A stretch of 55,320 nt of DNA, the filler included, from Catajapyx aquilonaris (taxonomy: Eukaryota): assembly GCA_000934665.2 (NCBI GenBank). It is 2 parts of 2 records of this genome, joined end to end, with 100 filler letters (N's around TTAATTAATTAA, not from the genome) between each part and the next. Parts side by side here need not be neighbours in the genome. Positions count along the whole stretch, not along the records: positions 1 to 27,553 come from JYFJ02005043.1; 1 more part is not named here. One strand, 5' to 3'. A model generated the notes under the pieces. It was not told the origin of the DNA and searched no databases. It saw only the letters and a program-made list of their open reading frames with translations. Below are positions 40 through 27,553 of the stretch, piece after piece (the stretch's first letter is position 1; the number at the start of each line of letters is the position of its first letter). The translations under genes and the position numbers were made by a program.

Positions 40-267
40 GTGTCGAGGACGCACAAGCCTTTGGGCGTGGACGGAGTTGAGCTGAGGTCCACGGAGCTTT
101 TGCAGGACAAGGAGGAGATGGAGGCCATAACCCCTGACCCTTGCTCTTCCGCGTCCGAACTGTACCCGATGCAAAACGACTGGATCCTCATCGCTGCAGG
201 GATCGACCGAATCGCCTTCCTCGTCTACTGTCTCATCGTTGCCATTCTATTCGCACTCTTCCTCTAG
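40..267 (+). CDS. Last exon of nAChR-like subunit gene 0 (end of M3-M4 loop plus M4); rest of gene lies upstream of the window
   Basis: Acceptor ttgcag ends at 39. The exon reads VSRTHKP...NDWILIAAGIDRIAFLVYCLIVAILFALFL*; W-x5-IDR followed by a hydrophobic helix is the typical nAChR M4 and matches the DR motif of the downstream paralogues. Confidence 0.85.
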   Translation: MSRTHKPLGVDGVELRSTELLQDKEEMEAITPDPCSSASELYPMQNDWILIAAGIDRIAFLVYCLIVAILFALFL

Positions 268-686
268 TCCAGGGCCGGTGACTCCTGGGCTTAAAAAGTT
301 CCTCTGGCATTTACACATCTCATGTTACTGTGCTTTTGTACCATTACTTTCCTACCCTCCAATCATATTTTGTACATAAAAGAGTTGCCAATGACATATC
401 GAATCTGTTCATTTATATCAGCAGGGAGAGATTTTTCTTATTTTTATAGGGTGGATCAAATATTTATCTATAATTACTAAGTAAATTATGAGGGTCATGA
501 TTTTGGCATACTTGTTGATTAAAACGTGTCTTTAATGAGGAATAATATTGTGGTGCGGTTGTAGCTGAGAGATGTCAGGCTGAACTGTGCGCGACTAGTG
601 CTGCCAATAATATTGCAACATACTGCATATACCTTCAGACACACGATATTGCAAAAACGGGGGAGGAGGATTAGACTGGTTACATC

Positions 687-2651
687 ATGACTTGGAAATT
701 GGTTGTCCTTTTATGTAGCTCATTATTCCGTAAGTACTTATTAAATCTAAGGAAGGAATTCAGGGCTAACTTTAGAAATCAGACGGTGCAATGTAAAATT
801 AGGAAACCTTTTGCATTGTTCTGTCCTTGCTGTTCCGATATTTTAAAATTCAATGCAGTTTCAGACACCGTGACGTCAGGAGGTACTGGCGAGGAATTGC
901 GCGCAAAATTATTTGCAAAGTACGATCCTCGCGCCAGTCCTGGAAAGCAATTTGGTAATACGACAATAGTAAAAGCAGCACTGTTCGTGACTGACTTTGC
1001 CGTCGTAAGTATGATTTGCATTAATCCGTACCCAAATTCCACTTAACTAACAGAAGGATCACTCGCAATTCAGGTAGAATCCGAACACACATTGCAATTG
1101 AATCTCTGGTTTTGGTTGGTAAGTTAAATTCTGCTTCTCAATCAACTTGACCGAAAGTAGGCAATGGTTCGACTTTTGATTATTATTTTCTGCCTGGACA
1201 GGAATGGAACGATACAAGACTCGCTTGGAATCCAGCTGAATTCGAGAATTTGGATCACTTACTCATGCCTAAAACTCAAATTTGGGTTCCAGAAACTGCT
1301 GTAGTTAACAGGTTTGGCTCAAATTTACAGCAGCCTTTTCTTTGAGTCGTGACAGCTTGGCTTACAAGTGATTGTGTTTTCAGAGGTTTTGTGAACGAGG
1401 ACACGTATTATTTCGTCCAATCCGCCTATCTGTACCACACGGGTGCGGTATCCTGGACAACACAGACATTTATGGACGTTTATTGCGACACTAACGTTAG
1501 GTTATGGCCTTTCGATGAGCACGATTGTCAGTTGGATCTACGGGCATGGTCTGCAAGCGGGGACCAGATATCCCTCATAGTTAATAACAACTACAACATG
1601 GTAATTACTTGCCCTATAAAAATTGTTGTGCTAAAACACTAAAAGGATATTATATTAAATGTGGTGTGATGCTCATTTCAGATCAACAGTGAATGGCATA
1701 CTGCTTCTCCTAATAGTCAGTGGATCCTAAATCATGTGGATTCGAAGCTAACTTATGCTGAATGTAGTTCCAGCAAGCAGTACGTAGCCTCGTTCAAGCT
1801 CAGTTTGAAGAGAAGATCTTCTTCAAACTTAGTGTTTGTGGCAGTTCCCAGCATGGGTAAGCAGGCACAAAATATTCTCATTACTCTTGTGGGCTCTTGT
1901 TAATTTTGAGTAATCTTCTGACATCAGTTCTGGTGGTGGTGACACTGTCGTCCTTCTGGCTTCCGATTGATTCTTCGGAGAGGCTGGCTCTTGGCTCTGT
2001 AAATGTGTTGTACTCGTTGCTTTTCATTCAGTTCTTGGGAGCTACTGTTCCCAATAATGGAGACGACCCTCCAGTTGTAAGTAAGTACATAATTATTTTG
2101 TCCTGAAGAAAGTGGCTAGGCCAGGAGCACTAACACAAAAATGCAAATCTATCATCTGACTATGTTGAAGTAATTCTTTTTGCATTTTTTTGAACCAACA
2201 TCAGATGATTTTAATAATGCATTTTGAGGTTGGCACTCTTGATTATGTCAGATCAATTGGAGTGTACTGTACAATGTAGACAATTATTCTTTTCCAGTTT
2301 TGTTTTTCTGCGGTTCCATGGTGGTGGTAGCCAGTTCAGTCATATCGACAGTGTTTTTGCGTCTCTTGATGACCGCATATCAAAATGCCTATGTCCCCAG
2401 TTGCCTTCTCGGAAAGTTTGGTTCGTTTTTGTGTCTTCAGAATGGCAAGGTATTAGAATGTTGCACATTGACTTCCCTGCATGATGTGTAATTGAAATCT
2501 ATCCTCTATTTAGATCGAGACGCCTGAGGGTGACGACACAGAAGCTACAAATAAAACGCGGCAGTTCATCCTAATTCATTGTCTGGACCGGATACTCTTA
2601 CTGGTCCACATATTTGCTTTTGTTGGTGTAATCACATTGACTTGTTTGTGA
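687..2651 (+). CDS. Divergent nAChR-like Cys-loop subunit gene 1 (non-alpha type, ~392 aa, 9 exons)
   Basis: Exons 687-729, 859-1004 (alternative in-frame acceptor 865), 1074-1118, 1202-1311, 1384-1600, 1682-1856, 1928-2080, 2298-2449, 2514-2651; all GT-AG with a continuous frame. Signal peptide, EWNDTRLAWNP, WVPE, Cys-loop C-DTNVRLWPFDEHD-C, four TM segments, AATAAA at 2681-2686. Loop C (YAECSSSKQY) has a single Cys. Confidence 0.93.
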
Positions 2652-26208: not shown

Positions 26209-26504
26209 GAGCAAAAAATAAAAAAAATACCCGCAACAATAAATTTACAGCACATTCGAATAAACGAGGTCACTTTCCACTCGCCCTGTGTGTATGTCCG
26301 TCTATATGTCCGACACACATTGGAGCAATCGTTATGTAAATGGCATGAATGGGGTCTCTGTTTAGGCTCGTTTGAGAGGAGGTGGTTGAGATACGGGAAG
26401 GGAGGGGGGGAGGGGTGTGCTAACAGGGTGTAACAAAGTGGCGACGAGTTGTTCAAGCCAGAGGACTCGGTAGGTGATGGTCGGAGCCGGCCATTTTTCG
26501 CACA

Positions 26505-27553
26505 ATGAAGATTCGCGAAATATGGGAATTAATTGGGGTTGTGACCTGTTGCATCGGAGTCACCAAAGGTAAAGTGACACAAGTTTTAAATCCAGTGAAA
26601 CCTGAGTATACCACGTATTATTAATTAACAATCACGGCCATGTTTCCGCTGAATCCAAAATTCGTTATAATTATTCAGGTTTCACTCCACGTGGTTTTAA
26701 GATTGAGCGTATAACTTACAGGGACTGATGTGCACACTATTCAAAATCTGAGAAAATCCTTGCTGAACAACTACGACGCATACGTAATACCAAATAACCT
26801 CACAGTGCTGCTGTCAATAACAGTTCTGTACGTCGAAGTGGTAAGTTCGATTTGCACAGTGCATTATTCAATAATTACACGACCGTTTATTTCCGATATT
26901 TAAGAATGACGACCGACATCTTGTGACCGCACATGCTTGGATCTCAATGGTAAGCGTGACATCTTTAATTGCTCAGCTTTCGTTGGCATATTAATATGAC
27001 CTCGCATGCTTCAAGTGGCCGAATTCATTTGCATGAAACAATAAACAATGACCACTCCTACATTACAGCTGTAATAATTCAGAAAGCATAAACATGTGAC
27101 CGGATGAAATTATTTCTTGTGCAAATTTCAATGATGTCAAGCTCAAATAAATAATAACCAAGTTATTCAACATGTCTATGTCATAATGAAATTAAATTTG
27201 AGAACCATTTTATAAATAAAATTGTACTCAACCATATTTTCGCATATTATTTTTTGCAAATATTATTTCAAATATTTATGCATAGGTATGGAACGACCCT
27301 CGCCTGAAATGGAACCCAGACGAGCACGGATCCATTAAAAAGCTCTCTTTCTCTCACGATTCCCTTTGGATGCCAGACATTTTACTCTATAACAAGTGAG
27401 TTTAACAGCAATTACTTAATAAGCACTAGTCTACTTGAATAACATAACATTATATGTTTCTATAGTGTTGACGAAAAAGTAGGAGACCACTACCACGAGA
27501 CGATGCCAGTGGTCAGCAACGATGGGTCAGTTCTTTGGGTGCCACGATCAGTC
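26505..27553 (+). CDS. nAChR-like subunit gene 5, 5' part only (truncated by the gap)
   Basis: Exons 26505-26568, 26722-26840, 26905-26949 (45 nt), 27286-27395 (110 nt), 27466->27553. LRKSLLNNYD, HAWISM, VWNDPRLKWNP, LWMPDILLYN, DGSVLWVP. Confidence 0.9.

Follow-up and report, generated by a model that had tools for sequence, protein, structure and literature searches.

Organization of the channel gene cluster

The window analyzed here is the whole stretch of 55,320 nucleotides, filler included, from Catajapyx aquilonaris (assembly GCA_000934665.2), the first 27,553 positions of which derive from record JYFJ02005043.1 and carry a cluster of nicotinic acetylcholine receptor (nAChR) subunit genes. 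Judged from the sequence, this is an old tandem cluster of the divergent class of hexapod nAChR subunits, with four complete genes of a second divergent lineage accompanied by two partial genes that are probably of the alpha9 type. Exon models built by coordinate across the window bear out the six same-strand channel paralogues reported in the initial annotation, and these are named g0–g5 in order along the plus strand.

The first gene, g0, is represented by its last exon only (1..267), which holds the end of the M3–M4 loop, M4, and the stop codon (PF02932 E=0.095, below cut-off), and its start falls upstream of the window. The non-alpha gene g1 (687..2651; PF02931 and pocket alignment) encodes 392 aa in nine exons (687–729, 859–1004, 1074–1118, 1202–1311, 1384–1600, 1682–1856, 1928–2080, 2298–2449, and 2514–2651), with a poly(A) signal 30 nt past its stop. 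The next gene, g2 (2802..4977; gene model, splice scores, and pocket alignment), also has nine exons (2802–2883, 3166–3293, 3553–3597, 3665–3774, 3848–4067, 4153–4327, 4411–4563, 4641–4798, and 4879–4977) and has a predicted length of 389 aa when exon 8 uses the better acceptor, at 4641, and of 394 aa when it uses that at 4626. Gene g3 (5124..7180; PF02931 and pocket alignment) encodes 396 aa in nine exons (5124–5196, 5303–5439, 5568–5612, 5776–5885, 5958–6171, 6284–6455, 6605–6757, 6825–6976, and 7046–7180) and, like g2, has the vicinal cysteines. Non-alpha g4 (24442..26208; PF02931 and pocket alignment) has eight exons (24442–24502, 24575–24711, 24773–24817, 24888–24997, 25068–25278, 25349–25517, 25580–25732, and 25910–26208) and encodes 394 aa. 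The first five exons of g5 (26505..27553; 26505–26568, 26722–26840, 26905–26949, 27286–27395, and 27466–27553; PF02931 and an alpha9-like profile score) encode 142 aa and end at an N gap at 27554. This gap (27554–27653), two 44-N runs flanking a 12-nt palindromic spacer, resembles an assembler's placeholder; the remainder of g5 may sit inside it, and no channel exons were found past it by tblastn in the window.

In the complete genes every intron is GT-AG and the reading frame runs without an internal stop. Exons 3 and 4 measure 45 and 110 nt in all five of g1–g5, and the exon spanning M1–M2 is 153 nt in 4/4 complete genes (for g2, with the acceptor at 4411), confirming the shared architecture that had been described. 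Intron positions and phases match across the alignment columns of g1–g4, with the last intron absent from g4. Exons of 45 and 110 nt are probably part of the general layout of nAChR genes; these lengths were not found in passages of PMC1919356. The proteins share 25–33% pairwise identity, terminate at M4 without an extracellular C-terminal tail, and have M3–M4 loops of 43–57 residues compared with 124–155 in the outgroup rows of the phylogeny, so that the intact reading frames and short loops claimed for the four complete genes both stand. Stop-to-start spacing along g0–g5 is 419, 150, 146, 17,261, and 296 nt. Because the g3–g4 distance is 17,261 nt and the others 146–419 nt, what had been called a tandem array is a genuine cluster formed of two tight blocks (1–7180 and 24442–27553) and not a single run, with no channel exon in the intervening DNA.

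Family identity and phylogenetic placement

Several features place the genes in the nAChR family. PF02931 scored above the cut-off in all five extracellular exons scanned (exon 5 of g1–g4 and exon 4 of g5), both cysteines of the Cys-X13-Cys loop are present in 4/4 complete genes, and a signal peptide and four membrane helices are recognizable in g1–g4 from alignment to relatives; matches to PF02932 on single exons were below cut-off. A HMMER search with exon 5 of g4 returned 1,339 proteins at E up to 0.001, and relatives were drawn from the 150 of these that were listed, with names looked up for 30 proteins and more taken from two further searches. Among the matches listed, the highest were insect alpha9 proteins (Locusta, Orius, and Anopheles) and unnamed divergent subunits of a springtail, damselflies, a dragonfly, a mayfly, a cockroach, a beetle, a moth, and an aphid, and the best full-length identity to the spliced g1–g4 proteins was about 22–38%. 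A word-index search with the same exon among longer proteins yielded no close relative (0/12 candidates passed).

The phylogeny of spliced proteins that the initial annotation had proposed groups g1–g4 with known divergent insect subunits. Trees were made with the 394-aa model of g2. A rapid 103-row tree took in units that aligned to g4 across 200 residues or more, after removal of isoforms and of the majority of mosquito and locust orthologues; in it, g1–g4 fell within a 10-row clade with SH-aLRT support of 100. A more careful tree of 30 hand-chosen rows, including one wingless hexapod and no named insect core alpha1–8 or beta1, had a 25-row ingroup (support 100/100, starred) and a 15-row clade (98/95, starred) made up of Allacma, g1–g4, and ten winged-insect rows (98/94, starred). 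The members of this clade, from Allacma, Hetaerina, Ischnura, Ladona, Periplaneta, Zophobas, Epargyreus, and an aphid beta2-like cluster, are separate from a 9-row alpha9 group (97/94, starred). Placement of g4 in the alpha9 group was rejected (p-AU 0.0013), g4 alone among g1–g4 having been put to that test, and forcing g4 with Allacma was not rejected (p-AU 0.17). The four genes grouped together at 90/89 (not starred) on long branches of 1.0–2.3 changes per site, and this one-clade grouping is to be read against those branches and a single wingless hexapod among the 30 rows. The second divergent lineage, and with it g1–g4, thus belongs on sequence and tree position to the divergent short-loop class of insect nAChR subunits.

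An extra pair of loop E cysteines occurs in the odonate, cockroach, beetle, and moth members and is missing from g1–g4, Allacma, and the aphid. Because g1–g4 branch outside the winged-insect rows and lack these cysteines, we infer that their position fits a wingless or otherwise unsampled hexapod source. Profiles were also built without the window sequences; as they differ in depth, the scores are indicative. Genes g1–g4 score best on the profile of the second divergent clade. The partial genes score best on the alpha9 profile (g0: 24.3 bits, compared with 10.8 for the second divergent clade and 10.2 for the outgroup; g5: 122, 92, and 84 bits, respectively), and g0 and g5 are probably alpha9-type genes. 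A tree on the N-terminal 130 columns left g5 unplaced.

Retention of the channel genes

The branch lengths of g1–g4, the repeats in the spacer between the blocks, and the gaps in the assembly could suggest that the four genes are decaying duplicates or misread sequence without a function. This is very unlikely given that all four complete genes are open, with 0/2000 shuffles stop-free for each, that their GT-AG introns lie at matching positions and phases, and that each has a poly(A) signal at most 60 nt past the stop. Second codon positions are identical at 53–58% between the paralogues, whereas fourfold-degenerate sites are identical at 4/26 to 14/42, near chance. An estimate of dN/dS was set aside as unusable because the fourfold sites are saturated. 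Synonymous saturation combined with kept reading frames therefore indicates that g1–g4 are old genes under purifying selection, as the initial annotation would have it.

Acetylcholine pocket and pore

Seven pocket positions were mapped to human alpha7 by way of the Allacma protein, with residue labels such as W149 following the customary numbering. A complete principal face (Tyr in loop A, Trp in loop B, and two Tyr in loop C) is found in none of the four complete genes, which keep 3–4 of the 7 residues each. The g1 protein keeps the loop B Trp, the loop D Trp, and one loop C Cys, has Val for the loop A Tyr, and is without the vicinal Cys pair, while g4 has lost the vicinal cysteines and retains Tyr in loop A, Trp in loops B and D, and the first Tyr of loop C. 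Both vicinal cysteines remain in g2, together with one loop C Tyr, and the loop A Tyr, loop B Trp, and loop D Trp are replaced by His, Glu, and Ile. In g3, the loop A Tyr and both vicinal cysteines are kept, the loop B and loop D Trp are replaced by Glu and Leu, and the loop C tyrosines by His and Trp. The rule that names alpha subunits by their vicinal cysteines is consequently satisfied by g2 and g3 only, and g1 and g4 are non-alpha.

Summed over the four genes, 13/28 pocket residues are kept compared with 120/160 other conserved residues (Fisher p 0.003, for sites that are not independent). The sampled alpha9-type proteins of Locusta, Orius, and Anopheles have 7/7, and other non-alpha divergent subunits retain 2–5, much as g1–g4 do: 2/7 and 3/7 in the Periplaneta units, 2/7 in Uranotaenia, 2/6 in the Anopheles beta-like protein, and 5/7 in Ladona, with the aphid proteins, like those of Periplaneta, Uranotaenia, and Anopheles beta-like, keeping only 2–3. 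As far as these residues tell, the erosion of the pocket in g1–g4 is comparable to that of ordinary non-alpha subunits.

The pore has an acidic residue at M2 −1' in 4/4 genes (Glu, Asp, Glu, and Glu in g1–g4), a GEK motif altered to xER or xDR, and no PAR motif, from which g1–g4 are predicted to be of the cation-selective type. Positions 2' and 6' of M2 are mostly hydrophobic, as across the whole divergent class. The comparison of extracellular and membrane domains suggested by the initial annotation gave 19–30% identity for the extracellular domain and 26–40% for M1–M3, the former being lower in 5/6 pairs and equal in 1; the same gap is seen in odonate paralogues that mostly keep the pocket (49–58% and 54–70%).

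One change in the pocket stands apart. The Glu at the loop B Trp site is common to g2 and g3, absent from 26/26 aligned relatives (Trp in 22/26), and is the sole one of 8 private sites shared by these two genes that lies at a family-conserved column; it is located 7 residues past the second Cys-loop cysteine without an indel. This substitution and the less conserved extracellular domain speak for the possibility, clearly the weaker one in our judgment, that g1–g4 are receptors for new ligands in peripheral chemical sensing or amine signaling, in which the exchange of the cation-pi Trp for Glu under a retained loop C lid would make the pockets of g2 and g3 acidic and suited to an amine or to some external compound. 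Precedents exist in the bee alpha5 subunit, which prefers amines (PMC12700902), the dopamine-gated DopC1 of Daphnia (10.1101/2025.10.31.685654), whose loop B Asp may or may not correspond in position to the Glu, and the octopus chemotactile receptors (CRs), which bind hydrophobic molecules (PMC11526382). Yet the closest relatives (Allacma, 3/4 of the odonate proteins scored for the full pocket, and Zophobas) keep 7/7 residues, the extracellular gap is shared with the odonate paralogues, and the saturated fourfold sites make dN/dS uninformative.

A bolder version, in which g1–g4 would be old hexapod non-cholinergic and possibly sensory channels, with the g2/g3 Glu binding an amine or environmental compound and the cluster forming a land-arthropod parallel to the octopus receptors, is doubtful. 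The cephalopod chemotactile receptors also arose by expansion from nAChRs and work without acetylcholine (PMC11526382), but the likeness is one of analogy only: their defining traits are expression in sensory cells, activation by hydrophobic ligands, and diversifying selection on the pocket, and chemotactile receptors are absent among the best 60 of 74 PDB matches to g4 exon 5. Should g2 and g3 answer a non-cholinergic ligand, they would add another example of a neurotransmitter receptor that has taken on a different input.

Comparison with divergent subunits of other insects

The divergent class is defined by low identity, a short M3–M4 loop, and the lack of a C-terminal tail (PMC8505678 and PMC2064938), and at least one such subunit occurs in every insect family described (PMC2064938). 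Named members of the second divergent lineage include Allacma CAG7833103.1, Hetaerina XP_071454775.1, Periplaneta XP_069678419.1, and proteins of Aphis (beta-2-like), Ischnura, Ladona, Zophobas, and Epargyreus. They resemble g1–g4 in their length (about 390–460 aa), short M3–M4 loop, altered GEK motif, hydrophobic M2 2'/6' positions, and similar M2–M3 linker, and, as with g1–g4, there are several copies per genome, some of them depleted in the pocket. They differ in that identity to g1–g4 is just about 22–38%, and that the Glu at the loop B Trp site is found in g2 and g3 and in none of the 26 aligned relatives. The insect alpha9 group (Locusta migratoria AHJ11222.1, Orius, and Anopheles AGAP009493-like) shares with the locus genes a short loop and no extracellular C-terminal extension, and in the fused Anopheles model alpha9 is paired with an adjoining non-alpha subunit; this is also the group whose profile gives g0 and g5 their highest scores. 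It differs from g1–g4 in the intact pocket of its named proteins and in the rejected membership of g4. Drosophila beta3 is treated with the alpha9 group on the basis of its description (PMC8505678), its own sequence being outside the sample.

Tandem or multiple divergent subunits are also present in the gene models of cockroach, midge, mosquito, stalk-eyed fly, mayfly, and damselfly. Fused two-unit models in Periplaneta, Clunio, Anopheles, and Teleopsis point to tandem pairs, Cloeon has two genes with consecutive accessions, and in both Hetaerina and Ischnura two members lie on contigs of equal length, although a shared contig is not proven adjacency. The Periplaneta tandem units sampled are recent, at 0.2 changes per site compared with 1.0–2.3 for g1–g4. 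A linked pair is reportedly formed by Apis alpha9 and beta2, and this is probably the pair 10 kb apart that is cited in PMC2045683, which also describes three divergent subunits in Bombyx with GEK replaced. Beyond the usual 10–12 subunits, Nasonia has 16, Blattella 17, and Periplaneta 19 (PMC12700902), the potato beetle has a large divergent group (PMC12309072), and in the lobster chimeric Cys-loop channels have undergone a large, separate expansion of their own (PMC8221624). In the literature searched, which was incomplete, neither this array nor a linkage of Ly6 genes with divergent subunits was described.

The initial interpretation of the locus as a divergent expansion is thereby upheld as to the short-loop class, the 90/89 grouping, and the eroded pocket; its presumed unusualness is not, since other insects show tandem divergent subunits and equal loss of the pocket. 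The arrangement itself is of a known kind, and what distinguishes it is the deep divergence of the four paralogues, together with the Trp-to-Glu change common to g2 and g3.

A proposed role as accessory subunits of heteromeric channels

The explanation favored here, to which we assign a probability of roughly 55%, is that g1–g4 serve as complementary or accessory components of heteromeric cation channels, probably in non-neural tissue, with acetylcholine bound by an alpha9-type subunit. The g1–g4 and alpha9-type proteins would assemble as heteropentamers, with the alpha9-type subunit providing the acetylcholine-binding principal face, g1 and g4, which keep the loop D Trp, providing the complementary face, and g2 and g3 acting as accessory subunits that alter gating, pharmacology, or assembly. 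A non-neural site, such as the fat body or haemocytes, is proposed because nAChR expression in the honeybee fat body is dominated by alpha9 and beta2 (PMC11404474). The Ly6-like gene located between g3 and g4 would be an unrelated neighbor of the channel cluster.

Several points weigh against this explanation. Carrying honeybee beta2 expression over to the g1–g4 lineage is an extrapolation, as the beta2 sequence lies outside the sample; functional reconstitution of any member of the second divergent lineage was not found in the literature searched; and g0 and g5 are partial, with most of the pocket falling outside the sequence available. The preferential loss of pocket residues counts against it as well. 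Additionally, the loop C disulfide persists in g2 and g3, which also have the loop B Glu in common over a long evolutionary path; a purely structural role would not obviously require this, and the retention of four paralogues to synonymous saturation suggests distinct roles.

In the literature searched, divergent insect nAChR subunits are characterized chiefly by their sequences and by where they are expressed, namely fat body and haemocytes. With four old paralogues that have each been altered in a different part of the pocket, beside two probable alpha9-type partners, the locus is a compact natural panel for distinguishing accessory subunits from receptors for other ligands, and it points to a deep expansion within the second divergent lineage itself, away from the usually studied species.

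The Ly6-like gene

On the minus strand between g3 and g4 lies a Ly6/three-finger-like gene of three coding exons (22528..23295; exons 23295–23211, 23141–22971, and 22819 onward), recognized by its Cys pattern and splice scores of 6.0–7.8 bits (from matrices trained on the channel introns). Its protein has a signal peptide, 12 Cys, and a terminal CxCxxxxCN. As assembled, the frame stops at 22566 after 169 aa and has no in-frame hydrophobic C-terminal signal of the glycosylphosphatidylinositol (GPI) type. A 16-residue hydrophobic tail (hydropathy 2.52) lies in another frame and ends at 22528, with a poly(A) signal 4 nt later; a hydropathy of 2.4 is reached by 1/864 background segments, a figure that is indicative given a second such stretch downstream (21 aa, 2.48). 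An intron was considered as a route to this tail, and 35 GT/GC-AG combinations of at least 30 nt would reach it. Because their donors are non-consensus by eye and several would cut the cysteine motif, the simplest reading is a one-base assembly error or recent frameshift in a GPI-anchored Ly6, within 22690–22528.

Scanned singly, the exons had no match in Pfam, including the quiver family, or in PDB, and against Atlas there were only leads under 0.9, one of them to the TGF-beta receptor II ectodomain. The Ly6 identity is a candidate assignment drawn from the cysteine pattern and the terminal motif. Lynx1 is a further comparator. Arthropod Ly6 proteins such as Drosophila quiver/sleepless share with the window gene a signal peptide, a small Cys-rich domain ending in CN, and a probable GPI tail, but have 8–10 Cys where it has 12. 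The window gene has no profile match and its tail lies out of frame, and it is at most a candidate quiver orthologue. The Ly6/uPAR gene that the initial annotation placed inside the array is thus a real Ly6-like gene, though on the opposite strand and with its GPI-like tail out of frame.

The annotation further proposed a decayed copy of this gene. Similar sequence does exist (21735..21880, minus strand; 75.6% over 119 bp, E 4e-17), but by blast and local alignment it is a fragment of about 120–150 bp that matches the last part of the signal-peptide exon (exon 1), the whole of the following intron, and a few initial bases of exon 2; a short intron-2-like piece accompanies it, and the cysteine domain is missing. 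Between fragment and gene, 21980–22140 is a short stretch of repeated 6–8-nt words.

The start codons of the Ly6-like gene and g4 lie head to head, separated by 1,146 nt (23296..24441), an arrangement that would suit co-transcription with g4/g5 from a shared promoter, with a GPI-anchored product that tunes the channels. The Ly6-like gene appears functional save for the frame of its tail, and in Drosophila knocking down Dbeta3 or Dalpha3 restores the sleep that quiver/sleepless mutants lose (PMC8505678). Even so, such a receptor-plus-modulator module is improbable: single exons have no similarity to Pfam quiver or other families, the gene may be a frameshifted, possibly null, allele, and g4 is without the loop C cysteines. 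Assuming about 15,000 genes in a genome, the rough chance of a Ly6 gene among the 8 neighbors of one locus is 1–2%, and of at least one such case among 10–15 nAChR loci 8–25%. By this rough estimate a Ly6 neighbor is not rare, since insects have 15–36 Ly6 genes, with roles that include cell adhesion and cuticle (PMC4476152; further Ly6 background in PMC13719153). A role for the Ly6-like protein as a co-regulated auxiliary of non-cholinergic channels is no more credible. Insect core-promoter motifs match the region at scattered sites only and were not counted as evidence. Among sequencing runs listed for 22400–26300 there was no RNA set containing the region, which says nothing either way about expression.

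The spacer between the blocks

The DNA between the two blocks (7181..21700), surveyed by repeat and splice scans, is without a channel exon and contains decayed tandem units, inverted repeats, and exon-like segments. Three decayed tandem units of ~2 kb each occupy 8900–13400 at 69–75% identity, and at least two of them hold a plus-strand exon-like segment with strong splice sites and no open frame (9098–9294 and 11118–11284). These two segments, along with 7822–7970 and 13952–14193, may form a spliced non-coding transcript. On the minus strand, segments at 20485–20354, 20278–20200, 19335–19170, and 16342–16275 have strong splice scores and mostly no open frame, and possibly belong to a second non-coding or unrecognized transcript. 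The spacer was also considered as a small-RNA host gene, and no Rfam family or tRNA was found there. A stop-free frame of 116 codons (14327–13980, minus strand) runs antisense to a plus-strand exon-like segment; it had no Pfam match and one PDB match at chance level (E 0.52). Nested inverted repeats at 17001–18877 (321 bp at 74%, 96 bp at 85%, and a 51-nt hairpin at 18342–18461) look like a degraded DNA transposon or foldback element.

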